Assembly: GCA_043798915.1 (NCBI GenBank)
Contig: JAZDOG010000020.1
Coordinates: forward strand, 7,281 to 71,280
DNA length: 64,000 bases
Direction: 5' to 3'
Source of the DNA: Pseudomonadota bacterium
GTDB lineage: Bacteria; UBA10199; 2-02-FULL-44-16; JAAZCA01
A program made the translations under genes and the position numbers. This document shows positions 1-22,681 of the stretch, piece by piece. Below the pieces are notes generated by a model. It had not been told where the DNA came from. It did no database searches and saw only the letters and a program-made list of their open reading frames with translations. Each line of letters starts with the position of its first letter. Position 1 is the first letter of the stretch.

Positions 1-525
1 TCGCGGCGAAAGGGTGTCGTCGAGCCGGTGGAGCGCGCCCAGAGAAGAGGCGAAGGCGCGCACGTCATCTATTTCAATTTCATTTTCCTTCAAGAGGCAC
101 GTTTTGAATCCGAGCTTCACGCCTTTGCGGTGAAGGTTCTTCACGGCACTGAACACCTTCTCCCTCGCTCCCCTGACGCCGGCGATTTTTTCGAACGCCG
201 TCCGGCTCATTGCCGGCAGCGTGATGTCGATCTTGTTCGGATTCAGGCGGGCGAACTCCCGGGCCGCTCGCGCATCTATCAGCGACCCGTTGGTGTAGAG
301 GATGAGCTGAAAACCCCTCCGTTTCGCGTGCCACATGATATCGAAGATGTCCTCCCTGAGGAGCGGCTCTCCGCCGGTGAACCCCAGATAGAGACAGCCG
401 GCATCGCGGAGCTGGTCCAGAAGGGAGAACACCTCTCCTGTCGAAAGCTCGGGCCGGCGCTTGAACCCTTCCGGCACGTAACAGTGCCCGCAGCGGAAGT
501 TGCAGCGATAGGTGAGTTCGAACAT
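1..525 (-). CDS. Radical SAM enzyme, partial (C-terminus beyond window start). N-terminus reads MFELTYRCNFRCGHCYVPEG... with a CxxxCxxC cluster.
   Basis: Manual reverse-complement translation of nt ~525->1 gives an uninterrupted frame with a canonical rSAM 4Fe-4S motif CNFRCGHC near the N-terminus and a GGE-like 'GFTGGEPLL' SAM-binding motif. Absent from the ORF track because it runs off the edge. G-rich SD (GAGGAGGGG) lies upstream. Start coordinate +/-3 nt. Confidence 0.65.
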   Translation of the reverse strand, partial: MFELTYRCNFRCGHCYVPEGFKRRPELSTGEVFSLLDQLRDAGCLYLGFTGGEPLLREDIFDIMWHAKRRGFQLILYTNGSLIDARAAREFARLNPNKIDITLPAMSRTAFEKIAGVRGAREKVFSAVKNLHRKGVKLGFKTCLLKENEIEIDDVRAFASSLGALHRLDDTLSPR

Positions 526-580
526 CACCCGGAGCGGGATGCCCCTCCTCGCCGCGCCCTCGCGGAGGCGGGCGTGGAAG

Positions 581-1678
581 TTATGATACGATCGATGGAT
601 CATTCATGCGCCGGAACGCCTTCTCCGCCATCCCGCAATAATAGGCTGCAGGGGCCTCCTCGTCGCCGGTCTCCAGAAAAGATGTGGCCGGGCAGATGCC
701 GCAGAGGGGCCTGAGCCGGCAGCTGCGGCATCTGGATTTCGTTTTGAATTTTTCCTTCAGGAGTTTCGGAAACTCCTCGTAGAAACCCTGCCGAAAGGGC
801 ACCTGCTTCAGATCGACGCCGAACCTCCTGGTCAGGGGGCACATCTTCAAAAAGCCAAAAGGGTCTATCGTGAACCCCGTCTTCCATTTCTCGCAATGAT
901 AAAGATGCTCCCTGTCCTTGTCCTTCGCCGGCCTGCGTGCCCTCTTCCCGGAGGGTGCCCCCTCACAATATTTTTTCCACATATCCTTATCCTGCCTCCT
1001 GACATCCTCGATCTCTTCGAACGTGAGTCTCAATTTCGTCGGCGCGAGGTCGCCGTTGAGCCTCGGCAAGATCATGGGGTCGTACTGGAAGCGATGTTTT
1101 TTCCGGTCCGGCGCGCCGGGGAGCCCATCGGCGAACGCCTTGATCCTTCCGATCTGATGCTGGTTCTGTTTCATGCAGTTCGTCTTGATCATGAAGGGAA
1201 TCTTTTCGTCGAAGAGCCTCCCGATGTTTCTCATCGTGCGCGCAAACGAGCCCTTCACCTGCGTGATCTCCTCGTAGACGTCCGCGGTGATGCCGTTGAG
1301 CGTTATCTCGACGGACTCCGGGGGGGAGGCGGCGAGATGGGAGATGATTCTTTCAGTCAGGGCATGCGCGCCGGTGTAGATGGTGACGATGAATCCCTTC
1401 CTCCTGGCGTAGTCGTAGAGCTCCAGGAAATCGGGCCTCACGAGGGGGTCGCCGCCGGTGAAGACGAGCCAGAGGCAGCCCTCCTCGCGGAGCCCATCGA
1501 GGATCTCTTTCCAGCCTTTGGCGGGGAGCTCCCGTTTTCTGTCCTCGCTGCCCTTGCAGAAGCAATGTATGCAGTTGAGGTCGCAGCTGTAGGTCAAACT
1601 GATATATCCCTTGAGCGGGGCGCGCTTCTTCTTGCGGTGTACCCAATCGCAAAAATAGACATGGCTGCGGTTCTTCAT
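581..1678 (-). CDS. Radical SAM/SPASM-domain peptide-modifying enzyme (maturase-like)
   Basis: Track ORF 581..1699 begins at TTG; the likelier ATG is at 1678 (MKNRSHVYFCDW..., GGAG 7 nt upstream). CxxxCxxC = CDLNCIHC. C-terminal Cys-rich SPASM-like region CRSCRLRPLCGICPA. 'VFTGGDPL' SAM motif. Confidence 0.8.
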   Translation of the reverse strand: MKNRSHVYFCDWVHRKKKRAPLKGYISLTYSCDLNCIHCFCKGSEDRKRELPAKGWKEILDGLREEGCLWLVFTGGDPLVRPDFLELYDYARRKGFIVTIYTGAHALTERIISHLAASPPESVEITLNGITADVYEEITQVKGSFARTMRNIGRLFDEKIPFMIKTNCMKQNQHQIGRIKAFADGLPGAPDRKKHRFQYDPMILPRLNGDLAPTKLRLTFEEIEDVRRQDKDMWKKYCEGAPSGKRARRPAKDKDREHLYHCEKWKTGFTIDPFGFLKMCPLTRRFGVDLKQVPFRQGFYEEFPKLLKEKFKTKSRCRSCRLRPLCGICPATSFLETGDEEAPAAYYCGMAEKAFRRMNDPSIVS

Positions 1679-1726
1679 CAGAGACTCCGGGAAGAGCAAT
1701 ACGGAAGGTCAATGCCTTGGTAAGGC

Positions 1727-1930
1727 TCAGCTAGTTGCAGCATACCAGACGGGTTCTACACACATACCTATCGCCGTAAACTTCTCGTAGGGCGTCCAGC
1801 AAGAGGAGCTTTCGTTCCAGTATTGACCCCCGTAAACTGGGTCGCTCATACAGTTGCATTCCAGCACTGCCTGCTCGGGGTTGAGCTCCACGCGGGTGAC
1901 CACCGGCCTGAATTTCGGTTTCTTGGGCAT
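1727..1930 (-). CDS. Candidate RiPP precursor peptide (67 aa): MPKKPKFRPVVTRVELNPEQAVLECNCMSDPVYGGQYWNESSSCWTPYEKFTAIGMCVEPVWYAATS
   Basis: Small ORF directly upstream of, and co-directional with, the rSAM/SPASM gene (48-nt gap). Very strong SD (AAGGGGGGGAGAT-ATG). Basic, charged N-terminal leader-like half; C-terminal half rich in Cys (4), Trp (3) and Tyr (4). The overlapping alternative-frame ORF 1731..1955 lacks an RBS and context. Confidence 0.5.
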   Translation of the reverse strand: MPKKPKFRPVVTRVELNPEQAVLECNCMSDPVYGGQYWNESSSCWTPYEKFTAIGMCVEPVWYAATS

Positions 1931-1967
1931 ATCTCCCCCCCCTTTTGCAGAACAACTATAATAACTT

Positions 1968-2058
1968 CCCCTCCTTTGTAAGGAGGGGACAGGGGAGGTA
2001 GATCAGCATTGAAACAGCGGTCTACCCCACCCTGACCCTCCCCTTACAAAGGGGAGGG
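1968..2058 (-). promoter_or_regulatory. Pair of near-identical perfect hairpins (CCCCTCCTT-TGT-AAGGAGGGG at ~1968-1988; CCCTCCCCTT-ACA-AAGGGGAGGG at ~2036-2058) in the 136-nt leader between the PqqD-like gene and the precursor peptide
   Basis: Seen directly in the sequence: 9-10-bp GC-rich stems with 3-nt loops. Their C-rich arms are complementary to the G-rich SD (GGGGGGGAG) of the peptide gene. Could act as an intra-operon attenuator/terminator or as SD-sequestering elements. Coordinates +/-2. Confidence 0.45.
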
Positions 2059-2066
2059 AAACGTCA

Positions 2067-2351
2067 CTAAACCAGGACCGCCTTGATCTCCTTTAAGTCC
2101 TTCAGGAGTTTTTTCATCTCCCTCTCCACCTCTTTGGGCGCGGAGCCAAACTCCTTCATGACCTTCTTTCCGATCCCCCCGGCCGTCGTCTTTCCGTCGA
2201 TCATCTCCCAGACCCGCGAGGCCGGTTTGTTGAGCGTGTAGATGCAATTGAGCTCTTCCGAGGTCTTGTAGATGGGCAGGAGGATTGTCTCATCGCCGAT
2301 CACGCGCGAGACCACGTCCGGATTCCTGCGCAGTATGGCGCCTTCACGCAT
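2067..2351 (-). CDS. PqqD-family protein (RiPP recognition element-like), 94 aa
   Basis: Track ORF 2067..2618, internal ATG at 2351 preceded by CAGGAGGGG. Sequence MREGAILRRNPDVVSRVIGDETILLPIYKTSEELNCIYTLNKPASRVWEMIDG... fits the PqqD/RRE pattern (P..v..r.idde.vLl.......y.LN..a..IWe..dG). The upstream 89 codons of the track ORF are G/P-rich low-complexity and probably untranslated. Confidence 0.7.
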   Translation of the reverse strand: MREGAILRRNPDVVSRVIGDETILLPIYKTSEELNCIYTLNKPASRVWEMIDGKTTAGGIGKKVMKEFGSAPKEVEREMKKLLKDLKEIKAVLV

Positions 2352-2440
2352 ATCCCCTCCTGTTGGAATGCCTTCCCCTGAATCCCGTGTATCTGACACG
2401 CGCGTATTTTTCAATAGATTTTTTGCCGGAGAGGTCCCCC

Positions 2441-2842
2441 TTAAGATTTTATCCATTGGTTCAGTCTGACCGCACCCCATATCCCAAGGCGGATCAGGGG
2501 GGCGAATACAACGATGGACCTGTTCACAAACCGATGCGCCCGGCTTGTCAGATTCACGACCGTGCCGTTCTTGAGGATTCCGACCACCTTTCCCAGACAG
2601 CGGTCCGGCGAGACGCATTCAGCGGTCCCGGATGTGTCGCCGCGCGCATAGAGGCGGTAGCCGCTGCCCTCTTTCGCCCTTCGAACGAGCCGGTGACAGA
2701 CGAACTTCTCGCCGGCGCGGTACAGGATGATGTCCCCCACTTTCAGATCACCGATGGGGGCCTCTCTTATTATCAGGCGCTCGCCCTGCTTGATGAACGG
2801 CCACATGCTGAATCCGGCCGTATCGAAGAATGAAACCTCCAT
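2441..2842 (-). CDS. S24/S26-family serine peptidase (signal-peptidase-I / SodX-like), 133 aa; candidate leader peptidase
   Basis: Start ATG at 2842 (MEVSFFDTAGFSMWPF...) with an AGGAGA RBS. A 'SMWP' motif matches the GDSMxP nucleophile box of S24/S26 peptidases. GDIILYR / GKVVGILKNG beta-strand motifs. Confidence 0.55.
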   Translation of the reverse strand: MEVSFFDTAGFSMWPFIKQGERLIIREAPIGDLKVGDIILYRAGEKFVCHRLVRRAKEGSGYRLYARGDTSGTAECVSPDRCLGKVVGILKNGTVVNLTSRAHRFVNRSIVVFAPLIRLGIWGAVRLNQWIKS

Positions 2843-2887
2843 GGAAAATCTCCTGTTTCGGTATTGAATGGTGGTGGGATATATGCC

Positions 2888-2915
2888 TGACATCATGGAC
2901 GTGTCAACTTCAGGA
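2888..2915 (+). repeat. Left copy of an imperfect direct repeat (TGACATCATGGACGTGTCAACTTCAGGA). Together with the upstream atggtggtgggatat it mimics the 5' end of the nucleotidyltransferase gene at 5406.
   Basis: Compare 5456-5483 TGCCGTCATGGATCTGTCAACTTCAGGA (about 25/29 identical). Encoded peptides MVVGYMPDIMDVSTSG vs MVDGYAEIGFYIDNEIPAVMDLSTSG. Flanks the 2.5-kb AlbA_2/ParA insert. Confidence 0.5.
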
Positions 2916-3170
2916 CATAGTGTGTGGGCGCGCCGGTTTGAAAAACCAGGTATTAAATTGTACGCACTTATAGCACTTTTTCAATATAACTACAAATTAG
3001 TTGATATAACCTCAATATTTGCGCTGTTATCACAAGTGAATTTGTGCAATGGTCTTTGTTGTTCTGTAAGTCACCACGATCTGGTATCTGTGCCTATACG
3101 GGTTGAGTTGTCACTTCCATTGAAAGAGTGCTGAGCTGTTACGAAAGACGAAGAAAGGGGGGAAGGGGCT

Positions 3171-4391
3171 ATGGGTTTAAAGATGATCGCCTATACTGAA
3201 CCAGAGATGGAGAAAATGCTCTCTGATCTCGAGACCGATAACGCCGAGCGAAAAGAATCCTTTCGGGGTGATGCGCCGACCAAGGTGCGCGAAGCCGTCT
3301 GTGCGTTTGCCAATGATTTGCCAAACCACGGCAAGCCAGGCATCGTCTTCGTCGGCGCGCGAGACGACGGAAATCCATCAGGGCTTGCGGTGACCGATGA
3401 GCTTCTTCGCCAGCTCGCAGACATCAAGACTGATGGCAACATTGTTCCTCCGCCGACGCTGACTGTTTCGAAACACGTTCTTCAAGGCAAGGAAATGGCG
3501 GTCATAACCGTTTGGCCCTCTGATTCCCCACCCGTGAGCTACAAGGGCCATATTTGCATTCGTATCGGCCCACGCCGTTGCATTGCCTCAGCGCAGGACG
3601 AGCGGCTTTTAAACGAAAAGAGACGGCACGGGGATCGTCCATTTGACGTTCGGGCAGTTCCGTCGTCTGCTCTGACAGATCTGGATCGACGGCGATTTGA
3701 GGAAGAGTACTTGCCTGCCGCCTTTGCATCCGATGTCCTTGCCGCAAACGAGCGCAGTTACGAGCAACGCCTTGCTGCGACCAAAATGGTGGTTGCGGCT
3801 GATGAGCCGACACCCACCGTGCTCGGTCTCCTGGTGCTGAGTGTGCGAACGCGCGATTTCATTCCAGGGGCGTATGTTCAATTTTTGCGGATTGCCGGTC
3901 GGGAGCTCGCCGACCCCGTTTCGGATGAACAAGTGATTGACGGCTCTGTGGTGGATGTGCTCCGACGCATAGATGAAAAACTAAGCTCACATAATCGCAC
4001 CGCGGTAGACCTGACAGGGGGAAGTCTGGAACGGCGCTCTTCCCTTTATCCAATGCCCGCCCTCCAGCAGCTCGTGCGCAATGCAATCATGCACCGAAGC
4101 TACGAAGCGACAAATGCCCCCGTGCGTGTGACATGGTATGACGACCGCATTGAAATCATCAACCCGGGCGGTCCCTATGGAGCTGTTACTAAGGAGAACT
4201 TTGGCCAGCCCGGCGTCAGCGATTACCGCAATCCCAGCCTTGCAGAAGCGCTGCGTGTTCTTGGCTTCGTGCAAAGATTCGGCGTAGGCATTGCCACAGC
4301 GCGCAGGGAACTACAGGCAAACGGGAATCCGTTGCCCGAGTTCGAAGTTACTGCGTCACACGTCGGTGTCACTCTGAGGTCTGCAACATGA
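3171..4391 (+). CDS. ATP-binding protein with AlbA_2 (Schlafen-like 'divergent AAA') N-terminal domain and HATPase_c_4-like C-terminus. Often annotated as RecG-like putative transcriptional regulator.
   Basis: 406-aa ORF. N-terminal region fits the AAA-4/AlbA_2 pattern; C-terminal region 'LVRNAIMHRSY...VRVTWYDDRIEIINPG' resembles HATPase_c_4. GC-richer than its AT-rich flanks. Confidence 0.5.
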   Translation: MGLKMIAYTEPEMEKMLSDLETDNAERKESFRGDAPTKVREAVCAFANDLPNHGKPGIVFVGARDDGNPSGLAVTDELLRQLADIKTDGNIVPPPTLTVSKHVLQGKEMAVITVWPSDSPPVSYKGHICIRIGPRRCIASAQDERLLNEKRRHGDRPFDVRAVPSSALTDLDRRRFEEEYLPAAFASDVLAANERSYEQRLAATKMVVAADEPTPTVLGLLVLSVRTRDFIPGAYVQFLRIAGRELADPVSDEQVIDGSVVDVLRRIDEKLSSHNRTAVDLTGGSLERRSSLYPMPALQQLVRNAIMHRSYEATNAPVRVTWYDDRIEIINPGGPYGAVTKENFGQPGVSDYRNPSLAEALRVLGFVQRFGVGIATARRELQANGNPLPEFEVTASHVGVTLRSAT

Positions 4392-5374
4392 AAACCATCG
4401 CCTTTTTTAACAACAAGGGTGGTGTAGGAAAAACCTCGCTAGTCTACCACCTTGCCTGGATGTACGCTGATCTCGGCCTCAGTGTGATCGCGGCGGATCT
4501 TGACCCACAAGCCAATCTCACTACCATGTTCCTGGACGAGGACGCCCTCGAAGCGCTCTGGCCGGAGGGAATGCCAGGACGGACTATTCTCGCCCCGCTG
4601 CTGCCGCTTTTGGAGGGAAGAGGTGGAATAGAGGAACCACATGTCGAGGACATCGCTGGCATAGGGCTCGTAGCCGGAGATCTTGCGCTTTCCGGATTCG
4701 AAGACGAACTGAGCCAACGATGGCCATACTGCCTTGAAGGCGATGCCCGAGCCTTCCGAGTAATAGGTGCGTTCCATCAGGTAATTGCGCTAGCAGCACA
4801 ACGTCGCGCGGCCGACGTCGTTCTAATCGACGTTGGTCCAAATCTCGGCGCGATCAACCGCGCAGCCTTGATTGCTGCCGATCATGTAGCAATTCCCCTC
4901 GCTCCGGATCTTTTTTCTCTCAAGGGACTTCAAAACCTTGGGCCCCGCTTGCGGGAGTGGCGTAAGGGATGGACAGAGCGCCTTAAAAAGTCTCCTGTTG
5001 GATTGGAGTTGCCTCAAGGGCACATGGCTCCGCTGGGCTATGTCGTAATGCAGCATGCAGTTCGTCTCGATAGACCTGTGAAGGCTTATGATAAGTGGAT
5101 GGTGCGAATCCCAAACGTGTACCGTGAGGCGGTTCTTGCGGAGGTAAAGACCCAGACAGATGTCGCTATCAACCGAGATCCTTACTGTTTGTCCACATTG
5201 AAACACTATAGAAGCCTTATGCCTCTCGCCCAAGAAGCACACAAACCCATGTTTTCGCTAAAAGCCGCCGACGGAGCGATCGGCGCTCATGCAAAATCTG
5301 TCCAAGACTGCTATCGTGATTTTCGTGAGCTTGCTATCGAAATTGCAAAACGGGCTGGAGTCACATTGCCGTAA
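4388..5374 (+). CDS. ParA/MinD-family P-loop ATPase
   Basis: Deviant Walker A 'FFNNKGGVGKTS' at the N-terminus; 'DLDPQANLT'; 4-nt overlap (ATGA) with the upstream gene suggests translational coupling. Confidence 0.8.
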   Translation: MKTIAFFNNKGGVGKTSLVYHLAWMYADLGLSVIAADLDPQANLTTMFLDEDALEALWPEGMPGRTILAPLLPLLEGRGGIEEPHVEDIAGIGLVAGDLALSGFEDELSQRWPYCLEGDARAFRVIGAFHQVIALAAQRRAADVVLIDVGPNLGAINRAALIAADHVAIPLAPDLFSLKGLQNLGPRLREWRKGWTERLKKSPVGLELPQGHMAPLGYVVMQHAVRLDRPVKAYDKWMVRIPNVYREAVLAEVKTQTDVAINRDPYCLSTLKHYRSLMPLAQEAHKPMFSLKAADGAIGAHAKSVQDCYRDFRELAIEIAKRAGVTLP

Positions 5375-5405: not shown

Positions 5406-6500
5406 TTGGTGGATGGCTATGCAGAAATAGGTTTTTACATTGATAATGAGATACCTGCCGTCATGGATCTGTCAACTTCAGGATGCGATTGGAACTCTGT
5501 CGTTGAACATGCCATCGAAAACGGCACGGCGACGCTCCTGTTTTCCCAATTGGCCTCGAAAGGGTTTCATGGCATGCCGCCGGCGGTCGTAGACCGCTTG
5601 AGGAAAATTTACTTATCCACGCTCATCAGCAACCGGAGGATGATGGCCGATGCGGCCCATGCCGTGCAGCTGCTCGAAAACGGCGGCGTCAAGACTGTGC
5701 TCATAAAGGGGATGGCGATGCTGGCGGACGTCTATGAGGACGCCGCGCTGCGCCGGACCTCGGACGCCGATATCCTCATCCATTTTGAAGACCTGGATAG
5801 AGCGAAGAAGATTCTCATGTCCGACGGCTTTGCCTGCGATCCCTTGGCCGACAAGTCGTCCTTTGCGAACGAGCTGGGTTTTGGAAGAAAAAACACAGTC
5901 TTCGTTGAGGTCAGATGGGACATGTGTCATCACGACCGCTTCCGGTTCTGCAACCGCTTCAGCATGGGGGGCATCTTCACGGGCGCCGCCGCCGCCGATC
6001 TCAATGGCGCCGCCGTAAAGATTCCCTCCCCGGAATATCAATTGCTCATCGCCGCCTTTCACCAATCGTTTGTCCACCATTTTGAAAAAAAGATGTGGCT
6101 GTATGATATCGTGGCGATCGCTGACCGCTACGGCAAGGACTTGAGCTGGGAGAGAGTCGTGCAGCTCTCAGAAACCTGCGGAATGCGGCGCGCCCTCGCG
6201 TACACGTTCCTTCGCGCGCGCCGGGAGTTCAATTTCAGCATGAAGCTTCCGCTGGAGATATCGCGCCTCCGGGTCCGCCTGCTGGATGCCTGCTCGCGCC
6301 GCCGTTACGGTTTTCTTGTGGAACTTCTCCTGCTGGACTGCCTGAAAGATCTCCTTCTCTATGCCGCGGGCGTCCTCTGGCCTTCCGACGGCTGGCTCAA
6401 ACACCACTACCGGACTTCGTCGACCAGACCCTGGCGCTTTCTGCATCCCTTTCTGGTCGCAGCGGGCGCCATCAAAAAAATCCTCGGGATATGGAGTTGA
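5406..6500 (+). CDS. Nucleotidyltransferase-family protein (NTP_transf_5-like, 'uncharacterised nucleotidyltransferase')
   Basis: 364-aa ORF. The track start is TTG; an in-frame ATG (MDLSTSG...) lies at 5463. Central 'TSDADILI...D' region is consistent with the nucleotidyltransferase fold of PF14907-like proteins. Confidence 0.5.
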   Translation: MVDGYAEIGFYIDNEIPAVMDLSTSGCDWNSVVEHAIENGTATLLFSQLASKGFHGMPPAVVDRLRKIYLSTLISNRRMMADAAHAVQLLENGGVKTVLIKGMAMLADVYEDAALRRTSDADILIHFEDLDRAKKILMSDGFACDPLADKSSFANELGFGRKNTVFVEVRWDMCHHDRFRFCNRFSMGGIFTGAAAADLNGAAVKIPSPEYQLLIAAFHQSFVHHFEKKMWLYDIVAIADRYGKDLSWERVVQLSETCGMRRALAYTFLRARREFNFSMKLPLEISRLRVRLLDACSRRRYGFLVELLLLDCLKDLLLYAAGVLWPSDGWLKHHYRTSSTRPWRFLHPFLVAAGAIKKILGIWS

Positions 6501-6503
6501 TGC

Positions 6504-7124
6504 ATGCTATATCAAAGAATATTGAGAAACCTTGCGCAGCTGGCGCAGGGCAAAATCAAGGCGCGAAAAATCCCTTCGAAGATAACCAATTTTATTCTCA
6601 GCTATAGTGAATCGCTCAGGCAGATCAAGAGAAGCAGATTCGCTATCGACGGCGTGATATTCAGGCCCGTTGAACCAAATGACGGATCGCGCTACGCCGA
6701 GTTTTTGCGCAATTATTATTTTCAGGAAGACATGCCTTACACAGGCGAGGCGGTAGCGGTCCCACATTGCAATGCGGAATACTTTTATCACGTCGCCGTG
6801 TATCAAAACAAGATCGTAGGAGGGGTGGGGATGGGCAGAATCCCGTCTGACACCGTTGACCTTTGGCGTATGGGAGGGTTGTCTGTTTTGCGTGATTTGC
6901 GCGGATACGGGATTGGCGAAAGGTTGCTGAAAACAGCAATTTCTGCCGTCGGGGAGGGGGACGCCATCATATTTCTCAATGTGGATAAAAATAATATGCC
7001 GGCGGTGAAATTATATAAGAAAGCCGGGTTTCATATGGCCGGCGGGCGGGAAAAAACCGTGATAAAAGATATCGGATACGCGCCGGGGAAAATAAGCATG
7101 GTGTTGGGGCGCATCCTCAATTGA
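6504..7124 (+). CDS. GNAT-family N-acetyltransferase
   Basis: Motif A-like 'RGYGIGERLLKTAI' and C-terminal 'LYKKAGF' typical of Acetyltransf_1. Confidence 0.7.
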   Translation: MLYQRILRNLAQLAQGKIKARKIPSKITNFILSYSESLRQIKRSRFAIDGVIFRPVEPNDGSRYAEFLRNYYFQEDMPYTGEAVAVPHCNAEYFYHVAVYQNKIVGGVGMGRIPSDTVDLWRMGGLSVLRDLRGYGIGERLLKTAISAVGEGDAIIFLNVDKNNMPAVKLYKKAGFHMAGGREKTVIKDIGYAPGKISMVLGRILN

Positions 7125-7178: not shown

Positions 7179-8804
7179 TCAGATTTTCCCGTTCATCTCA
7201 TATACATCAAAATGCCCGATCTCCTTCACCTTTAAGAAATTGTCGAAGATGTAGGATTTGAGCAGCGGAAAATCGTCAAGGCCGTCGTAATTATCAGGAT
7301 CAATTCTATGGAGGACCACTATCTCGACTTCATTTTTTTTGAGGTCATCCACGATCCAATTGTCCAGCCTGGCATCGTAGACCTCCGGATACGTCAACCT
7401 CTTTGCGAATTCGACCAGCGGCTGGGGAGAAGGCTTGCCCAGCGCGCCATAGAGCATGGCAAATAAATATGGAAAGGTAAAAAAATTCCTGTCCTTTTTC
7501 CGAAGATAGCTGGCCAGATTGTCAATATTCTCCGCTTTGTACGGATTGTCTTCGGTCGATGACTCAGCCCATTTCATGGGCTGCAGGTTGGGTTCCTTCA
7601 GCGCATTGAGGGACATGATGGGGGTAATCCACCCGCTTTTGAAAGCGTATCTGACGCCCCTGACCGCACAGACTATGAGCAGCATGGACACCAGCACGAT
7701 TAAAATCTTTCTTGGAGGAATCTTCAATTCACTGCGAAGCACTCCGGCGCTTTCGGGTATGGACAAATCAAAAAAATGGAACAGGAGGCCCGTCTCAAGT
7801 GAAGCGACGATGCCCACGAAGGAATACGATGTGGGGTAGACGGAGGTGTAAAAGAAGAAAAGCTGAAAGAGGAAGGCGCCTATGCACAGGACGGAAGATA
7901 TGAATGGGAGTCTCCATGAGGATCTCACCTTTTTAAAATTGCAGAAATACAATGCAACCACGACGGCCGGAACTGCGATGGTCAGCAATGCATATGGCTT
8001 GTGCATCTTCAGGGATTCGTTGAAAAGGGTTCCAAATCTTCCCGCGCCCACGCCGAATGGAAGGAGGATGTAATAACGCAGAAAATTATTGAGATCCGAT
8101 TTATATACAAGCCAGGACAAAAAAAGCGAAGCCGCCGCAGAAATGCCAAGGAGGAAAACGGCGATGCGTCCCCATGCGGGCCTCGCTTCGGAAATCGATG
8201 CTGCGATGATCAGCATAAGAAATAAAGGGATGGCAAAAAAACCCGTGTTCTGCTTCCCCAATAGTGTTGCGAATGCAAAGATTCCGCCTGTGAAGAGAAG
8301 CGCCATGTTGATGATGGACCGCCGTGATTTGCCGCAGAGCGCGGGGAGGATGAGCGCTATCGCTATGAATGAGAACGCCAGCGATATCTGCTCCGGCACC
8401 GGTATGCCGAAGGGCGCATTGAACCAGATTGCGGTGAGGAAACCCGCGATGTACGACAGATATTTCTGTGGAAAGAGGATTCTGACCGTCATCATGCTGC
8501 AGAGCGTCGCGACGACACTCATAGATGCCGCACAGACAAGGAACGCCACATAGTTGACGCCCAGGAGCTTGAAAAAAAGCGCCACAAGCCAGAACAACGC
8601 CAGGCTATGCTGGGAGACGAAGTCCTTGAACAGGATCTGGCCTGAGAATACCCTGTAACCGCCATCGAACGTCAATGCCGGGCTCAGCGGCATGGCAACC
8701 TGGCCTCCTATATAGCTCACGATGAACGCCGCTGATAGTATGAGCAGGATCACCGCAAGATCAAGCAGCTTGGAGCTCAGACGCGACGGATTGCTATTTG
8801 CCAT
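7179..8804 (-). CDS. Polytopic membrane glycosyltransferase, GT-C superfamily (ArnT/PMT/GT39-like), with C-terminal soluble domain
   Basis: About 12 predicted hydrophobic helices then a ~150-aa hydrophilic C-terminus. Probable ATG at 8804 (MANSNPSRLSSKLLDLAVILLIL...); the track ORF extends to 8909. Confidence 0.45.
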   Translation of the reverse strand: MANSNPSRLSSKLLDLAVILLILSAAFIVSYIGGQVAMPLSPALTFDGGYRVFSGQILFKDFVSQHSLALFWLVALFFKLLGVNYVAFLVCAASMSVVATLCSMMTVRILFPQKYLSYIAGFLTAIWFNAPFGIPVPEQISLAFSFIAIALILPALCGKSRRSIINMALLFTGGIFAFATLLGKQNTGFFAIPLFLMLIIAASISEARPAWGRIAVFLLGISAAASLFLSWLVYKSDLNNFLRYYILLPFGVGAGRFGTLFNESLKMHKPYALLTIAVPAVVVALYFCNFKKVRSSWRLPFISSVLCIGAFLFQLFFFYTSVYPTSYSFVGIVASLETGLLFHFFDLSIPESAGVLRSELKIPPRKILIVLVSMLLIVCAVRGVRYAFKSGWITPIMSLNALKEPNLQPMKWAESSTEDNPYKAENIDNLASYLRKKDRNFFTFPYLFAMLYGALGKPSPQPLVEFAKRLTYPEVYDARLDNWIVDDLKKNEVEIVVLHRIDPDNYDGLDDFPLLKSYIFDNFLKVKEIGHFDVYEMNGKI

Positions 8805-8893
8805 GCCATGCCCTTTGATGCGGTATCTAAGCTCAATTGAACCGCCGTGCATGCAAACATATTCCGGCGGGCAGTGCAACGGGACTTTGATGG

Positions 8894-9069
8894 TTACTAA
8901 GGAGAGCACATTATACCTCGCATCTTGCGGCCGCCAATGGCCTGCGACTGCGTCAGATTTCGCAAAAAGTGCTCAACGTAGCTTTGGCTACGCCTCCGCG
9001 CTTTTTGCTCATCTTCCTTGTCTCGGCTCATTGTCGTTGCAATCTGCGAGGTATAATGTGCTCTCCTTA
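8894..9069. mobile_element. MITE-like element: 29-bp perfect terminal inverted repeats (TTACTAAGGAGAGCACATTATACCTCGCA ... TGCGAGGTATAATGTGCTCTCCTTAGTAA) around a ~118-bp core
   Basis: Seen directly in sequence; lies in the divergent promoter region between the gene ending at 8804 (-) and the gene starting at 9118 (+). Explains the spurious mirrored ORFs 8722..9084(+) and 9009..9311(-), which both read 'KESTLYLA'. No transposase. Coordinates +/-2. Confidence 0.5.
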
Positions 9070-9117
9070 GTAAAGGGCTTGTAATGAACGCTGAAACTGG
9101 TAAAACTGGGTTCTCCG

Positions 9118-9975
9118 ATGAATATCAAAAAAGAAATATTCGATAAGCTCATCTGCTTAGGCTGCCATTCGAACGGATTGACCCTTTGCGCCGATTTCTC
9201 AATCCGGTGCGCCAAATGTTTGCGCACATATCCGATCGTGAACGGAGTGTATTCCTTTGTCCCGGAGGAAGCGGTTTCCTTCAGCGAAGTGCCGAAAGAG
9301 ATACGCGGCAATTATATCAGGGTTAAGAGGGCAGCCTACTTCGACGAGTCATTCATCCAAAAATTATACACGCATTATCATCGCTATGCGGGAAAGATGA
9401 GGAGCTTGTATGGCGGCGATGGATCAACGTTGGATATCGGGTTTGGGGCGGGCGAGCATTATGAATTCATCCGCCCTGACGAAAAAGACGGACGATCATT
9501 TATCGGAGCAGATCGCGACAGGTTCAAATTGGAATACTTTTGCAGAAATCATCAGGATGTTCCGGTGTTTCAGGCGGATGCACTCGACCTGCCGTTTTCG
9601 GATGGCAGTTTTGATGTGGTGCAGCTCTTGGCAACCATAGAACATTTTGATATAAAAGGCGTCAACAGGGTTATCTCTGAAAGCCTGAGGGTTTTGAAGG
9701 CGAACGGGATCCTGATCGTATGTTATCCGGCGGAAGGCAGCCTGCTGCTGAAGTGCTGCCGAAAGATCATGGGGGTCATTTTAAAGTTCAAGTCGGATTA
9801 TGACATGGTGAAAGATCTGGCGCATACGCATGCGCATTTATCTTCCGCCGCTGAAACAAGAAAAGCTTTGAAGAGCAACGGGCAATTAAAAAACGTCGAT
9901 TCATCATTCTACTTTCTGTCAATTCCAAATTTGCATTTATCACTTTTTATCAATGAAGTTTATAGAAAGATATAG
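9118..9975 (+). CDS. Class I SAM-dependent methyltransferase with N-terminal Trm112-like Zn-ribbon (CLGC...CAKC)
   Basis: Motif I 'LDIGFGAGEH'; acidic 'DALDLPFSDGSFDVV' post-I/II motifs (Methyltransf_11-like). Confidence 0.7.
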   Translation: MNIKKEIFDKLICLGCHSNGLTLCADFSIRCAKCLRTYPIVNGVYSFVPEEAVSFSEVPKEIRGNYIRVKRAAYFDESFIQKLYTHYHRYAGKMRSLYGGDGSTLDIGFGAGEHYEFIRPDEKDGRSFIGADRDRFKLEYFCRNHQDVPVFQADALDLPFSDGSFDVVQLLATIEHFDIKGVNRVISESLRVLKANGILIVCYPAEGSLLLKCCRKIMGVILKFKSDYDMVKDLAHTHAHLSSAAETRKALKSNGQLKNVDSSFYFLSIPNLHLSLFINEVYRKI

Positions 9976-9994
9976 CCGCCTTTGCAGGTAAAAT

Positions 9995-11512
9995 ATGACA
10001 ATGAATCGCAATAAAATATTGCTTGTTTATCCAAAGGTGGGGATGAGCGGTTCCTTTGCGTGTCATCTTCCTTTGAGCCTTCTCTATGCGGCGGCGGATT
10101 CCATCAAGGCTGGATTCGAGGTGGATATTGTCGATGTGAGGCTTTGTCCGCAGAAATGGAAGGAAGCCATCTCTGCGAAGATATCTTCCGGCACGATTTT
10201 GGCCGGGCTGAGCGTCATGACGGGCACGCCGATAAAAAATGCCCTTGAGATCTCCAGGTGGATCAGGAGTTCTTATTCCCATGTGAAGGTTGTCTGGGGA
10301 GGGCCCCACGCCGCTTTCAACGGCGCCGAGATTTTAAGGGAAAGGAGCATAGATTATGTCGTCAGCGGCTATGGTTCGCTGCCCCTGTCCAGGATTGCCA
10401 GGTTCCTGAGGGGCGACAAAGATGCATTGCAACTTGAGGACATATCCGGCCTGTCATATCGCAAAAACGGCTCTATCATGTCGGTGCCGAGGGAAAATAA
10501 ATTTGAGCTGATCAATTATAAAGACATTCCATACCACCTTATAGAAAAAGACCTTGGCCGCTATGGCCAGCTGGACAACGGCGAGATCATTTTCCCAATG
10601 TATAGCGTGGTAGGCTGCCCGTATCACTGCGCATTTTGTTCTTCCCCGGCTCAGTATAGGGATTTTACAAACAAGTACGAACGCATTTCATCGCAGGAGG
10701 TGGTCGACCATATCGAATTTGTTAAAAACGGGTATGGCGCCGAATATATATATTTCATCGATGATGATTCGTTCGTCAATCTTGAACATGTGACAAAAAT
10801 AATCGACGAGGTCAACAGCAGGGCGCTCAAGGTGCGCCTGGGTTTCAGGGGGGCCAGGATCGATGAGATCAAAAAAATGGATGACGAATATCTGGAAAAG
10901 CTGGTCGATGTCGGAACTGACATCCTTCATGTCGGTGCTGAATCAGGCTCGCAAAGGATGCTCGATCTGATACGAAAGGATATCACCGTCGATGATATTA
11001 TTTTCGTAAATAAAAAGATGGCGCGCCATAGCAGGATCGTTACCACATATAACTGGATAGTCGGGCTGCCGGGGGAGACGGAGGGCGATTTGCGCAAGAC
11101 GAGGGAGCTGATCATGACACTGCTGGGCGACAACCCGACTGCGATAATTGTCATGCCCAATAAATACCGCCCCTTGCCAGGAACAGAGCTGTATGAACAC
11201 GCGTTGAGACACGGCTATAAAAAACCTGCCAGGCTGGAAGACTGGATCGACAGAGAGGCGGAGGGAAGCTGGCGGATGCCGTGGTATACAAAAGAGACGG
11301 CAAAGATGATAGATATGATGCAGGTGACTTCATTTTTTATAGACGACAAAATATTCAAGGTGCGGACAGGCAGGACATTGAAGTTTCTCCTGGCGCGCCT
11401 GGTCTCCTGGATATATGCCCCGATAGCCAGGTTGAGATTTAAGCATGGTTTCTCAGGGATGCTAGTTGAACACAAATTGTTCCAATGGTCGGTCTCCGCC
11501 TTCCGAAAATAA
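9995..11512 (+). CDS. B12-binding-domain radical SAM protein (class B rSAM; likely C- or O-methyltransferase on a sugar)
   Basis: N-terminal Rossmann-like B12-binding region (ILLVYPK..., 'VVWGGPHA'), then rSAM cluster CPYHCAFC. Confidence 0.8.
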   Translation: MTMNRNKILLVYPKVGMSGSFACHLPLSLLYAAADSIKAGFEVDIVDVRLCPQKWKEAISAKISSGTILAGLSVMTGTPIKNALEISRWIRSSYSHVKVVWGGPHAAFNGAEILRERSIDYVVSGYGSLPLSRIARFLRGDKDALQLEDISGLSYRKNGSIMSVPRENKFELINYKDIPYHLIEKDLGRYGQLDNGEIIFPMYSVVGCPYHCAFCSSPAQYRDFTNKYERISSQEVVDHIEFVKNGYGAEYIYFIDDDSFVNLEHVTKIIDEVNSRALKVRLGFRGARIDEIKKMDDEYLEKLVDVGTDILHVGAESGSQRMLDLIRKDITVDDIIFVNKKMARHSRIVTTYNWIVGLPGETEGDLRKTRELIMTLLGDNPTAIIVMPNKYRPLPGTELYEHALRHGYKKPARLEDWIDREAEGSWRMPWYTKETAKMIDMMQVTSFFIDDKIFKVRTGRTLKFLLARLVSWIYAPIARLRFKHGFSGMLVEHKLFQWSVSAFRK

Positions 11513-11760
11513 TTTAGACGTCCCGCAAGGGAACTTCTGCCGAAATCAAGTGATTTGCTCATCAACGCCTTCTCGGTGCATGGTATCTCGCCGGGGTTCT
11601 TTCAATGGTCTTGGGGGCCTCCGGCGTTTTTACCGGGATCGGCGCAATGTATCTCGCTGGGACTCTTTGAATGGTCTCATGAGCTTCAGGGGCCTCCGGC
11701 GTTTTTACTTCCTCGGCTGGGAGTTGAGGCTCTTCGTATTTTCCCTTGGTGCGCACGTCC
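11466..11760. repeat. Tandem array of ~60-70-nt repeats (core ...CAATGGTC...GGGGCCTCCGGCGTTTTTAC...), about 3-4 copies
   Basis: Seen directly: tccaatggtcggtctccgccttccg / ttcaatggtcttgggggcctccggcgtttttacc / ttgaatggtctcatgagcttcaggggcctccggcgtttttact. On the minus strand they encode the VKTPEAPxxxETIxRxPARY and YYxEDVRTKG peptide repeats. Confidence 0.6.
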
Positions 11761-12068
11761 TCCTGATAATACTGCCCTTTAGTCCTCACATCCTCGCCGT
11801 AATAGCTGCCATTGACGCGTTCGCTCTGGATCCCTGACGGCGCCTGTGGATAGGGCACCGTTGTCTCGATATCCCGCCGCGGCGGGGCATTGGATATTGA
11901 AGAATTGATGATCGGCGAAATCACCTGGCCGATGCCCGTGGTCTGGCCGGCCACTGGGTTGGTTCCGGTTATGGCGCCGCCCGTATCCTGCCTCTGTGCG
12001 AAAACAGTCGTACTTACGGACAGGTCAAATATAAACACTATAATTGCTATTGAGTGAGATACCTTCAT
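11562..12068 (-). CDS. Secreted repeat protein (signal peptide MKVSHSIAIIVFIFDLSVSTTVFAQ; internal peptide repeats), hypothetical
   Basis: Probable ATG at 12068. Gly/Thr-rich linker then repeated motifs YYGEDVRTKGQYYQEDVRTKGKY and VKTPEAPEAHETIQRVPARYIAPIPVKTPEAPKTIERTPARYHAP. Confidence 0.45.
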   Translation of the reverse strand: MKVSHSIAIIVFIFDLSVSTTVFAQRQDTGGAITGTNPVAGQTTGIGQVISPIINSSISNAPPRRDIETTVPYPQAPSGIQSERVNGSYYGEDVRTKGQYYQEDVRTKGKYEEPQLPAEEVKTPEAPEAHETIQRVPARYIAPIPVKTPEAPKTIERTPARYHAPRRR

Positions 12069-12225
12069 TAATGATAGAATAGCATGTGATGTCACCGATT
12101 GTCAAATATAGCAGGAGTGATTTTGCTTGGCATTTCAAGTAATTAGGATGGTTGTCCAATAAGTTTGATTTAGATGAATGATGATGTTATCTTGATATAG
12201 CAAGGTATTTCAAAGTGAGGTCATT

Positions 12226-13398
12226 TTGCTGCGCTTCAGACAAATAATAAAGAACCCCGAAAAGGATAAGCAGCCAGAGGAAAAGAGGGGTTCGGTCTCA
12301 TTTTCAGAGCTGCGGGATCAAAAGGAATTCCCCGCACAGGGGCCGCCTGCGCAGGAACCGCGCGCACAGGAGCCGGCCAAAGAGGAGCCAAAAGCTGCAG
12401 ACTCGATAAATTTGCGGCTCTTCGATGTAAAAGAGCAGGGCAAGCAAATGTCCCCGCCCAAAGATGATCTGCCGTCGATTTCGGATGCGGTCTCCGCGTT
12501 CGATACGTATACGAAGATGGCCGATTTCTTGAGCGGGGTTACCGGCCGGCTTGTGCGCGCGGAGCCGGTCACTTATGATGAGATTGAGGCCCAGGTTGAA
12601 AATCTGCTGGCCGAAACCAAAGAACACCCGGATCAGACGCAGCTGTTGATAGAGGTGGACACTCCCGAGGATTACCCCGTAGGGCATATGGTCTGCGTCT
12701 GCATCCTGGCGCTCAGGATGGGCATGGAGCTCAATTTTAGCCATGAAAAGCTGATGACTATGGGAATAGGGGCTTCGCTGTTTGACGTTGGAATGATCAA
12801 ATTGCTGGACATCGCAAGTGTGGGACGCAATGTCAGCCCGCTCGAATTTGACGAGGTGAGGAAGCATCCTGAATACAGTGTGAATGTGATCAGACAGATC
12901 AAAGGCATGCCTGAGGCGGCTGTCGAGATTGCGATGCAGCACCACGAGCGCCCCGACGGGAAAGGCTATCCGTACGGTTTGCGCGCGGGGCAGATTTCCG
13001 AGCTTGCAAAAGTTGTGATGCTTGCCGACGTCTATGTGGCCTTGACTCACTCAAGGCCGAAGAGGGCGGGTGTGACGCCCCACGATGCGATCAAAGAGCT
13101 TTTGCAGGGCCCCCGTCTTTTCAGCCCCCATGTCCTGAAGGCGCTTCTGCGCGTTATCACGGTGTACCCCATCGGCACCTGGGTTGAACTCAATTCGCGC
13201 GATGTGGGGCGAGTCGTAAAGCTCAACCACGAACAGCCGCTGCGCCCCATAATTGAAGTCGTGTGCGACTATCGGGGCCAGAGGATGGAATCAAAAAATG
13301 TGGTAAATCTGAACGAACGCCCTCAGCTCTATATCACCGGCGTGGTGGAAAAGGATCATGTGAAAAAATGGGGCCTGGATGAGCTGGTCCTCGCTTGA
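12226..13398 (+). CDS. HD-GYP domain protein (c-di-GMP phosphodiesterase family) with low-complexity Pro/Glu-rich N-terminus
   Basis: 'HHERPDGKGYPYGL' matches the HD-GYP signature HHE.xDGxGYP. Paralogous to 53950..55080 and shares its C-terminal 'P(I/V)G(T/S)WV.L..(R/G).(V/A)(G/A)RVV.LN' domain. Confidence 0.75.
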   Translation: MLRFRQIIKNPEKDKQPEEKRGSVSFSELRDQKEFPAQGPPAQEPRAQEPAKEEPKAADSINLRLFDVKEQGKQMSPPKDDLPSISDAVSAFDTYTKMADFLSGVTGRLVRAEPVTYDEIEAQVENLLAETKEHPDQTQLLIEVDTPEDYPVGHMVCVCILALRMGMELNFSHEKLMTMGIGASLFDVGMIKLLDIASVGRNVSPLEFDEVRKHPEYSVNVIRQIKGMPEAAVEIAMQHHERPDGKGYPYGLRAGQISELAKVVMLADVYVALTHSRPKRAGVTPHDAIKELLQGPRLFSPHVLKALLRVITVYPIGTWVELNSRDVGRVVKLNHEQPLRPIIEVVCDYRGQRMESKNVVNLNERPQLYITGVVEKDHVKKWGLDELVLA

Positions 13399-13429
13399 TT
13401 TGCCCGCCTTTTGTGGCTTTAGTTTATTC

Positions 13430-13458
13430 GCCGACCCGTTCAAGGTCGGCCTTTTTAT
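13430..13458 (+). terminator. Rho-independent terminator (GCCGACC-CGTTCAA-GGTCGGC then CTTTTTAT) after the HD-GYP gene
   Basis: GC stem of 7 bp with a 7-nt loop followed by a T-run, about 35 nt after the stop at 13398. Coordinates +/-2. Confidence 0.5.
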
Positions 13459-13561
13459 CCTCCTGCGATTCTGCGAGTGAGACCATGCTTGCAAAAAACA
13501 GGAAGGAACCATAAACATAACAGGTTCAGGGATTTGGCTGTTTTTATCCAGGAGCGCTGGG

Positions 13562-14995: not shown

Positions 14996-15030
14996 GCTGC
15001 AGGCCAGGTTTCATTGCAAAATGCTTCATT

Positions 15031-16425: not shown

Positions 16426-16654
16426 GTGTCTCTATGGTCTGTTATCATACTCGCTATTTACTGCACAAGGGCAATTGGGTTCCTAAAGGGGCAATGGAGT
16501 CCAGTAAGATACAAATATGATTATGCCTTTACATCTGGCAAATAATATTCTATCTCTATGATATTAATAAGAAAAAGGGTTGGAGATAGCGGGCACTGAA
16601 AAGCTGTTTTTATAGTCGGCCGCCGCACTAGGTGGGCTGGCTTTGGCGAGCATA

Positions 16655-22679: not shown

Positions 22680-22681
22680 GG

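Follow-up and report, generated by a model that had tools for sequence, protein, structure and literature searches.

At the left end of the 64,000-nucleotide stretch of contig JAZDOG010000020.1 analysed here (hereafter the window), positions 1-2900 of the minus strand carry five co-directional genes. They encode a signal-peptidase-like protein, a stand-alone PqqD-family protein, a peptide of 67 amino acids and two radical S-adenosylmethionine (rSAM) enzymes, called rSAM-a and rSAM-b below. These genes are the front half of a conserved cassette that occurs mostly in Omnitrophota. Very likely, the cluster directs the synthesis of a peptide made on ribosomes and modified after translation (RiPP) with the 67-residue peptide as its substrate, and it is likely that this RiPP belongs to an undescribed family and that the window holds the upstream half of the genes for its biosynthesis. 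What is new is the precursor family, together with an unusual set of tailoring genes; the pathway is of a known kind, i.e., a PqqD-dependent rSAM/SPASM RiPP pathway. The features concerned are the following, with bit scores for rSAM domains to be compared with a gathering score of 29.5 for PF04055.

2957..2984, minus strand: promoter-like site TTGAAA-16-TACAAT, 5' of the peptidase gene (consensus scan, 10 of 12 positions)
2441..2896, minus strand: signal-peptidase-like protein (S24/S26 fold, Ser/His type), open reading frame (ORF) of 151 amino acids, recognized from Pfam, NCBIfam and orthologue motifs
2067..2351, minus strand: stand-alone PqqD-family protein, 94 amino acids (PF05402, 41.9 bits against a gathering score of 23.4, E 1.3e-10)
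1931..2062, minus strand: long near-perfect inverted repeat (RNA hairpin by RNA folding) filling the spacer between the PqqD and precursor genes
1727..1930, minus strand: putative precursor peptide gene, 67 amino acids, identical to NCBI MFH0798814.1 ('hypothetical protein')
1862-1930, minus strand: leader, codons 1-23, encoding MPKKPKFRPVVTRVELNPEQAVL
1730-1861, minus strand: core, codons 24-67, encoding ECNCMSDPVYGGQYWNESSSCWTPYEKFTAIGMCVEPVWYAATS
581..1678, minus strand: rSAM/SPASM maturase, paralogue a (rSAM-a), 365 amino acids, NCBI MFH0798813.1, alternative TTG start at 1699 (PF04055, 68.2 bits)
1..603, minus strand: rSAM maturase, paralogue b (rSAM-b), N-terminal 201 amino acids, cut by the window edge (PF04055, 91.8 bits)
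5406..6500, plus strand: NTP_transf_5 nucleotidyltransferase (PF14907, 141.8 bits; SDADIL D-x-D motif)

An earlier description of this DNA, made from its letters without database searches (the sequence-only reading), had proposed a compact rSAM-dependent RiPP operon at 1-2900 with the 67-codon ORF as precursor gene. All five genes are present, separated by gaps of 89, 136 and 48 nucleotides and then by a 23-nucleotide overlap between rSAM-a and rSAM-b, and the proposed PqqD family is borne out by the Pfam score. The assignment as an rSAM-dependent RiPP operon is supported by the conserved leader, the hypervariable core and the synteny described below. The genes are real, but the window edge truncates the cluster, and genes associated with it are found outside 1-2900. 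Of the cassette, the window contains the first part, plus the NTP_transf_5 gene at 5406-6500. The site at 2957-2984 is a candidate promoter for the operon, picked out by its pattern match alone.

The precursor family and its cassette in other genomes

A word-based search with the 67-residue peptide returned four matches, which are the identical NCBI protein and three relatives sharing only the first ~27 residues. An exhaustive profile search with a hidden Markov model (HMM) over 1.84 billion representatives retrieved many more: 776 cluster representatives at E<=1e-3, of which 518 at E<=1e-10, clusters being defined at 50% identity. The members found in this way are 38 to 102 amino acids long. 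The peptide is therefore a member of a large unannotated family; at a threshold as loose as E<=10, no model of NCBIfam (June 2026) or Pfam matched the window peptide or any of ten diverse members.

Alignment statistics were taken from the best 151 matches. Their leader consensus is M-x-(K/R)-K-P-K-F-x-P-x-I-T-R-V-K-L-N-P-E-Q-A-V-L, and the mean pairwise identity is 0.81 in the leader and ~0.30 in the core, the latter even with generous gapping. The boundary between leader and core would thus lie where conservation drops. Directly after the leader, all 151 members have x-C-x-C, followed in 134 of them by Tyr, Trp or Phe, and core position 8 is Gly in 108. Three or four core Cys residues are found in 132 of the 151 (four in 80, three in 52). 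Ser is the C-terminal residue of 143 members and Thr that of 5, and 81 end in Ser-Ser. In general, the core scaffold can be written as x-C-x-C-(aromatic)-x-x-G, one or two further Cys residues and a terminal Ser or Ser-Ser. The window peptide, whose start codon is preceded by a G-rich ribosome-binding site (AAAAGGGGGGGGAGAT-ATG), fits this scaffold with its CNC motif, four Cys residues and an end in ATS. The family thereby shows what is looked for in RiPP precursors, i.e., a conserved leader, a variable core and linkage to modifying enzymes.

The cysteine content also bears on another explanation, in which the product is a secreted, disulfide-bonded mini-protein, its conserved N-terminus is an atypical export signal cut by the peptidase, and the rSAM enzymes play an indirect role. 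It would account for the three to four Cys residues of most cores (four in 80 members), for a peptidase of the signal peptidase type and for the ATP-binding cassette (ABC) exporter of the cassette. The N-terminus, however, is highly charged and lacks a hydrophobic h-region, so that it is not a Sec signal; the 52 cores with three Cys residues have an odd number; and PqqD with the three SPASM enzymes is the most conserved part of the cassette. This explanation is considered highly unlikely.

The RiPP reading is carried further by the genomic surroundings of the peptide family. The peptide is present in three metagenome contigs and in 33 loci from species-representative genomes (numbered with an L where single loci are named). 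The label is Candidatus Omnitrophota for 27 of the 33 loci, the others being labelled Verrucomicrobiota, Elusimicrobia, Planctomycetales, delta proteobacterium, NPL-UPA2 and WOR-3. Gene content was determined by matching the ORFs of each locus to a reference set of cassette proteins. The recurring order is peptidase, (UPF0489-TPR protein), PqqD, precursor, rSAM-a, rSAM-b, ScmC-like protein, rSAM-c, ABC exporter and NTP_transf_5 protein, and this same order is found in L002, L008, L013, L016, L026, L028 and others. Among 30 loci, PqqD was matched in 21, rSAM enzymes in 20 (17 with all three paralogues), the ScmC-like protein and the ABC exporter in 15 each, and the NTP_transf_5 protein in 11. 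Most loci without cassette genes are short contigs or end near the peptide gene. The sequence-only reading had named the presence of peptide homologues beside rSAM genes in other genomes as a check; orthologous PqqD and rSAM genes adjoin the peptide gene in about 20 of 30 independent loci, where rSAM genes strictly accompany PqqD and the peptide. With 518 relatives of the peptide at E<=1e-10 and synteny with the same enzymes elsewhere, the five-gene operon is genuine, far beyond what chance would produce.

The cassettes hold one to three precursor genes, sometimes interleaved with those of the enzymes. Loci L032-L036 have a variant precursor subfamily with a different basic N-terminus, 'AVLSCC' in place of 'AVLxCxC', and cores that are shorter but likewise end in Ser. 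In L036, eight of these 'SCC' precursor genes lie in tandem (7927-12119), and no match to any cassette reference protein was obtained in the 19 kb of this locus that were examined.

Besides the common genes, several additional ones occur in part of the cassettes. Many cassettes, although not that of the window, encode a protein of ~500 amino acids with a UPF0489 (FlmR-N-like) domain and TPR repeats between the peptidase and PqqD (L002 743-2148, L013 8088-9632, L007, L009, L016, L026 and L031; two separate ORFs encode it in L002). The peptide arginases FlmR and OhkR belong to the UPF0489 family, and NCBIfam gives the match 38.5 bits, with a cut-off of 350. A link between this arginase-like gene and the Arg content of the core was considered; inspection revealed no clear relation, and L002 has the gene together with an Arg-free core. 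Glycosyltransferases of the GT1 and GT2 types are inserted in some cassettes. Genes for B12-binding rSAM proteins lie in or beside six other loci, namely L007 (15707-17242, between rSAM-b and rSAM-c), L015 (6475-8037, between the ScmC-like gene and rSAM-c), L022, L025, L026 and L008, and these are possible optional tailoring genes for methyltransferases. The window also has a B12-binding rSAM gene, at 9995-11512 on the plus strand, which is 22-28% identical to those of the six loci. Such identity denotes superfamily similarity and not orthology, and the gene was rejected as a cassette member.

The PqqD protein, the rSAM enzymes and the nearest named systems

The PqqD protein of the window is 54-65% identical to the proteins encoded directly 5' of the precursor gene in about 20 loci (65% to the L001-L003 set). 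It is predicted to be the chaperone that binds the leader, i.e., a RiPP recognition element (RRE). PqqD and the precursor are genetically linked: the PqqD gene lies directly upstream of that of the precursor in these loci, and both are joined in single ORFs in a marine Omnitrophota metagenome-assembled genome (MAG), JAHJHM01. Three loci of this MAG (L018 7151-7990, L027 8868-9623 and L029 9536-10258) encode a PqqD domain, an Arg/Glu-rich linker and the precursor with no stop between the parts. At a fourth, L024 (3107-3950), the PqqD ORF stops (3107-3496) and the precursor is read in an overlapping frame (3393-3950). In the JAHJHM01 copies, another residue takes the place of the precursor's usual initiator Met. 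These ORFs suggest a covalent fusion of an RRE with its substrate.

The rSAM enzymes of the window are 46-50% (rSAM-a) and 58-64% (rSAM-b) identical to the products of, respectively, the first and second rSAM genes of L001-L003. In rSAM-a, the CX3CX2C motif (C32/C36/C39) is invariant in 40 homologues. Seven C-terminal Cys residues (C262, C280, C317, C320, C326, C329 and C348) are all invariant too, with the spacing C-x12-G-x4-C ... CX2CX5CX2C ... C, in which the last interval is one residue shorter than in the SPASM consensus CX9-15GX4C ... CX2CX5CX3C ... C. The Pfam SPASM model PF13186 gave no match at E<=0.01 for rSAM-a or its orthologues. The SPASM-type domain that had been proposed for this enzyme is instead recognized from the Cys motif and from the fold match to SkfB, PqqE, SuiB, CteB and anSME. 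In a Foldseek search with the AlphaFold2 model (predicted local distance difference test score, pLDDT, 85.1), SkfB was nearest and PqqE second-best, followed by SuiB, CteB and then anSME, an anaerobic sulfatase maturase. The TIM barrel of the model begins at about residue 20, so rSAM-a has no fused N-terminal RRE.

Of rSAM-b, which the sequence-only reading had already called truncated by the window, only the 201 N-terminal residues are visible; the CX3CX2C motif is present (CNFRCGHC), and the start at 603 agrees with full-length orthologues in the alignment. The orthologues of paralogues b and c have the CX3CX2C motif and the seven SPASM Cys residues, the corresponding region of the window copy lying beyond the edge. 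The two distinct rSAM enzymes claimed earlier are hence both present in the window, but relatives of the cassette carry three and not two.

Between 55 and 78 NCBIfam families matched the rSAM enzymes, all far under their cut-offs. The best scores for the window proteins are 95-108 bits against cut-offs of 265-650, and the top matches (NirJ2 107.8 bits, AhbD 103 and MftC 94) cover the rSAM core alone. Assignment to a named family was therefore rejected on score, which holds for AhbD/NirJ, anSME, PqqE, MftC, AlbA, StsB, PapB, GeoRSP and the ACGX system. The model for the anaerobic sulfatase maturase, TIGR03942, gave 56.8 bits for paralogue c of L002 against a cut-off of 349, and neither window enzyme has it in its list of the 25 best families.

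These matches were considered from the side of a small-molecule pathway as well, in which the enzymes would act on tetrapyrroles (AhbD/NirJ-like) or, as an anSME, on a sulfatase, and the small ORF would be unrelated. The identity of the top-scoring families and the presence of anSME among the Foldseek matches speak for it. Against it, the AhbD and NirJ2 matches span only about residues 26-192, in models with cut-offs of 500-650, and the sulfatase maturase model is as far off as stated. No heme or siroheme gene and no sulfatase gene was found among the neighbours scanned, and the rSAM genes keep strictly to PqqD and the peptide in about 20 loci. A non-peptide rSAM family, which the sequence-only reading had set as the outcome that would overturn it, is thus contradicted by the scores and by the gene neighbourhood, and this explanation has next to no probability.

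A third explanation concerns a redox cofactor or quinone derived from a peptide, with a precursor like PqqA or MftA and one rSAM enzyme whose target is the C-terminal residue (the Ser might be oxidatively decarboxylated, for instance). A stand-alone PqqD with a PqqE-like SPASM enzyme is indeed the arrangement of the pyrroloquinoline quinone (PQQ) and mycofactocin pathways, and the NCBIfam models for PqqE and the mycofactocin maturase score comparatively well (92-94 bits). The near-constant last residue of the cassette peptides recalls MftA, which ends in Val-Tyr. However, precursors of cofactors have conserved cores, whereas those of the cassette are hypervariable and encoded in up to eight copies per locus. 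A dedicated ABC exporter and a peptidase are present, the scores are far under the cut-offs of PqqE (381) and MftC (265), and no PqqB/PqqC or MftD/E/F genes were seen in the loci. Altogether, a cofactor pathway is extremely unlikely. What the PQQ (PqqA/D/E) and mycofactocin (MftA/B/C) systems do share with the cassette is a separate PqqD-family RRE serving an rSAM/SPASM enzyme that has none of its own; they use one enzyme and one conserved precursor for a cofactor, whereas the cassette has three enzymes, variable and multiple precursors, an exporter and a peptidase.

The closest named system is the SynChlorMet (SCM) cassette (TIGR04248-TIGR04251; PF27840), which is known from comparative genomics only and consists of ScmC, the PqqD-like ScmD and the rSAM/SPASM enzymes ScmE and ScmF. 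The cassette could simply be an already catalogued member of it. Both have a stand-alone PqqD, several PqqE-like rSAM/SPASM enzymes and a P-loop protein of the ScmC family. The best NCBIfam match of the window PqqD is ScmD, ScmE and ScmF occur among the rSAM matches, and the related loci encode proteins of PF27840 ('ScmC'). All equivalog cut-offs are nevertheless missed widely, and membership was rejected on this score: the ScmD model (TIGR04248) gives 20.8 bits for the window and 34.9 for L002 against 100; the ScmE/ScmF models (TIGR04250/TIGR04251) give 65.2/64.3 for rSAM-a, 45.9/71 for rSAM-b and 66-83 for the L002 paralogues against 400; and the ScmC model (TIGR04249) gives 27.5 for L002 and 29.4 for L001 against 125. 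The cassette further differs in having three rSAM paralogues where SCM has two, and in the Ser/His peptidase, the NTP_transf_5 protein, the ABC exporter and, often, the UPF0489-TPR protein. It is found mainly in Omnitrophota, and the leader patterns gave no confirmed match beyond the taxonomic labels listed above, and so none in genomes labelled Syntrophobacter, Chlorobium or Methanocella, whose presence in the collection was not checked. Finally, the cassette has a clearly identifiable precursor family; to our knowledge, the description of SCM names no precursor. Plain SCM membership is regarded as improbable.

The cassette may work like sactipeptide and ranthipeptide pathways. The maturases of these (SkfB, AlbA, CteB and PapB) are SPASM or twitch rSAM enzymes acting on Cys-containing cores, and SkfB and CteB are top structural matches of rSAM-a. 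Unlike the enzymes of the cassette, they have a fused N-terminal RRE and there is usually one per cluster. By sequence, the cassette enzymes do not belong to the named maturase families (StsB 66-83 bits against 625, AlbA 47-51 against 850 and PapB 72 against 340).

Predicted leader removal, possible serine tailoring and the proposed route

The first gene of the operon encodes the predicted leader peptidase. Its start is likely Met19 of the ORF (ATG at 2842), giving 133 amino acids, because this codon has AGGAG 7 nucleotides upstream and agrees with the starts of the orthologues. The protein is 48-53% identical to the peptidases of L002, L007 and L013 (48% to the L001-L003 set). The motifs GxSMxP (GFSMWP in the window), C-H-R-L and the GD box are kept in an alignment with 12 orthologues, although Cys replaces the Ser at the catalytic position of GxSMxP in two of these. 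Signal peptidases of the SipW/ER type have a Ser/His arrangement, while that of LexA is Ser/Lys. By its motifs, the cassette enzyme is of the Ser/His (SipW/ER) type and not LexA-like, and its activity is a prediction. The S24/S26-type peptidase proposed earlier stands as far as the Ser and His motifs go; the family scores fall just under the thresholds, and the general S24/S26 label is narrowed to the SipW/ER type. In common with ER/SipW-type signal peptidase I (S26B, TIGR02228), the enzyme has the GxSMxP Ser motif and an H-R motif where the bacterial signal peptidase I has Lys. It differs in being short (133-151 amino acids), lacking an N-terminal membrane anchor, scoring under the TIGR02228 cut-off and being encoded inside a RiPP cassette. 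As the sole protease of the cassette, in which the ABC exporter has no C39 domain, it is the candidate for leader removal. The V-L-(A/S/T) before the first Cys fits the -3/-1 rule of signal peptidases in ~75% of the precursors.

Two further fusions involve this peptidase. In L017 (6733-8481), the NTP_transf_5 protein is fused to the S24-like peptidase (582 amino acids), and in L026 (6211-8271) the S24-like peptidase is fused to a PMT-type GT-C glycosyltransferase (686 amino acids). Seen together with the PqqD fusions, such joined ORFs link the peptide to PqqD and to the predicted functions of peptidase, nucleotidyltransferase and glycosylation.

The ScmC-like proteins of the related loci are 70-97% identical to each other and carry the precomputed Pfam annotation PF27840. 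They have an invariant P-loop, GKSGxGKS (GKSGAGKST), and an LNDDR motif 18 residues later, and this P-loop/DD arrangement resembles that of HPr kinase. Weak HMM matches were obtained to the HprK-related kinase B (E 1e-5) and HPr(Ser) kinase (E 5e-4); 9 of 13 ScmC-like proteins match Pfam Hpr_kinase_C and 3 of 13 match PEPCK_ATP. It is plausible from these motifs and matches that the ScmC-like protein is an HPr-kinase-like peptide kinase. In lasso peptide pathways, homologues of HPr kinase phosphorylate the C-terminal Ser of the precursor, an uncharacterised NTP-transferase then adds hexose, and fusions of nucleotidyltransferase and protease occur in the clusters (PMC6993621, PMC8498205). According to the pseudomycoidin paper, the lasso kinase PsmK is inactivated by the D158A/D159A substitution. 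The fusion in L017 parallels the nucleotidyltransferase-B2 protease fusions of such clusters.

The paeninodin (PadeK) and pseudomycoidin (PsmK, PsmN) systems share with the cassette a C-terminal Ser, a P-loop protein (in the cassette one that is plausibly HPr-kinase-like) and a nucleotidyltransferase that is sometimes fused to the leader protease. The differences are that rSAM/SPASM enzymes would form the core of the cassette product and that its kinase-like protein has a remote similarity to HprK (E 1e-5 to 1e-3). No lasso cyclase (Asn-synthetase-like) or B1/B2 protein was present among the ORFs scanned or matched, many ORFs of the loci never having been scanned; as none of those covered is a lasso cyclase or B-type protease, the cassette is not taken for a lasso system. 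The NTP_transf_5 family, matched in 11 of 30 related loci, makes the gene at 5406-6500 very probably a member of the cluster, and its product may tailor the C-terminal Ser.

From these elements, the following route can be proposed. PqqD would bind the leader, probably at the ITRVKLNPEQAVL stretch, and present the core to the rSAM enzymes, which have no RRE of their own. The three SPASM enzymes would each abstract a hydrogen atom and install an intramolecular cross-link in the core. Tentatively, these cross-links would be Cys-derived thioethers of the sactionine or ranthionine type, or would join Cys to aromatic residues, at the CxC-aromatic motif and the later Cys. The C-terminal Ser would be O-phosphorylated by the ScmC-like protein and then decorated by the NTP_transf_5 protein, a route that, by analogy with paeninodin and pseudomycoidin, is conceivable though somewhat doubtful. 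The signal-peptidase-like enzyme would remove the leader, possibly after the V-L-(A/S/T) just before the first Cys, and the ABC transporter would export the product. No specific modification is put above this tentative level. The most far-reaching version, an unrecognised RiPP class typical of Omnitrophota with a hypervariable library, three SPASM enzymes, a new topology or chemistry of cross-links and a phospho- or glyco-capped terminal Ser, is rather unlikely as a whole.

Several observations weigh against this interpretation. The support is genetic: every chemical step is derived from it, and no modified peptide has been observed. Three cassette genes, those for the ScmC-like protein, the third rSAM enzyme and the exporter, are not inside the window and would lie past its left edge, the content of the missing half being read solely from the cassettes of relatives. 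The window peptide itself is atypical, with Met instead of an aromatic residue after CxC and Pro instead of Gly at core position 8. The precursors of L005, L020, L030 and L036 have no cassette gene within 10 kb. For the peptidase, Pfam Peptidase_S24 (PF00717) narrowly misses its gathering score (22.4 against 23.3 bits), and so does the best NCBIfam match, TIGR02228 for archaeal-type signal peptidase I (40.9 bits, with 51.85 required). The proposed -1 position of cleavage is Gln in 18 of 151 precursors (12%), which is unusual for a type I signal peptidase. A sequence-profile search of the PDB with the ScmC-like protein gave no significant match, its model is poor (pLDDT 59.5), and Foldseek retrieved PEPCK and HprK/P only at E ~0.1 and nothing significant. 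Lastly, the operon does not adjoin the NTP_transf_5 gene, as two unrelated genes (AlbA_2/HATPase_c_4 and ParA-like) stand between them.

With regard to novelty, no paper on this leader, on the SCM cassette or on an rSAM/HprK RiPP turned up in a search that left subscription journals mostly outside, so that a prior description is possible. The papers found on RiPPs or ranthipeptides of Omnitrophota give antiSMASH classes only, and not this system. If the far-reaching version above is true, the cassette would also provide the first usable precursor model for the orphan SynChlorMet-type cassettes. The system joins SCM-type rSAM cassettes, for which no substrate is known, with the kinase and nucleotidyltransferase tailoring of a C-terminal Ser known from lasso peptides. 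Much new peptide chemistry has come from rSAM/SPASM enzymes, most characterised families of which gave a new kind of cross-link. The near-invariant recognition sequence and variable cores of 776 clusters bear the mark of a naturally diversified library with a portable leader, which is attractive for discovery and engineering. Omnitrophota have ultra-small cells and are possibly host-dependent, and their ecology is unresolved; we know of no well-studied cultured members. A conserved, exported and diversified peptide could bear on their interactions with other cells. Even if details of the route are wrong, the cassette is a well-defined, testable gene cluster and not an artefact.

The spacer hairpin, the source of the contig and the right-hand neighbours

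The spacer between the PqqD and precursor genes of the window is filled by an inverted repeat that folds at -73 kcal/mol (z = -5.15), and none of 200 shuffled sequences folds as well. The hairpin pairs a CCCUCCCC tract with the G-rich Shine-Dalgarno region of the precursor, and it contains a promoter-like site (1955-1982) and a terminator-like hairpin (1967-1989). The window has no second copy of it, and the corresponding spacers of those related loci that could be examined lack it, for which last reason it is not counted among the design features of the family. It may regulate expression or stabilise the transcript, or it may be a small repeat that was inserted here. Scans of the whole 64-kb window for tRNAs and Rfam families found none.

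The MAG from which the contig comes is labelled 'Pseudomonadota bacterium' at NCBI, yet nearly all relatives of the cassette are found in Candidatus Omnitrophota MAGs. The G+C content of the region is 54-60%, and the closest relative of rSAM-a is merely 54% identical. This taxonomic mismatch may mean that the contig was wrongly assigned or binned, that horizontal transfer took place or that the lineage is divergent.

To the right of the operon, the following genes precede or follow the NTP_transf_5 gene.

3171-5374, plus strand: two overlapping genes, for a SLFN/AlbA_2 plus HATPase_c_4 protein and a ParA-like AAA_31 ATPase (Pfam domains)
6504..7124, plus strand: GNAT acetyltransferase (PF00583, 55.4 bits), translationally close to the NTP_transf_5 gene
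7179..8909, minus strand: polytopic membrane protein with a weak PMT_2 (GT-C) match (PF13231, 19.4 bits, under the gathering score of 26.1)

None of the related loci showed the gene pair at 3171-5374; it may have been inserted as a module for regulation, defence or partition. The GNAT gene, a weak relative of which adjoins PqqD in L025, is a possible accessory gene whose membership is uncertain. The membrane protein at 7179-8909 is possibly the product of another accessory gene or else part of the adjacent glycan locus; its assignment to the cluster is uncertain because a glycan-synthesis locus spans 9 to 23 kb.

With the genes at its near end included, this glycan-synthesis locus adjoins the cluster at 7179-23611. 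It encodes two PMT_2-like membrane proteins (7179-8909 and 13562-14995), a SAM methyltransferase, an HD-domain protein, a Bac_transf sugar transferase, the B12-binding rSAM protein at 9995-11512, several GT1/GT4 glycosyltransferases and a 509-residue protein without a Pfam match (17811-19340). A further rSAM protein of this locus, encoded at 19340-20341, does have a Pfam SPASM match.

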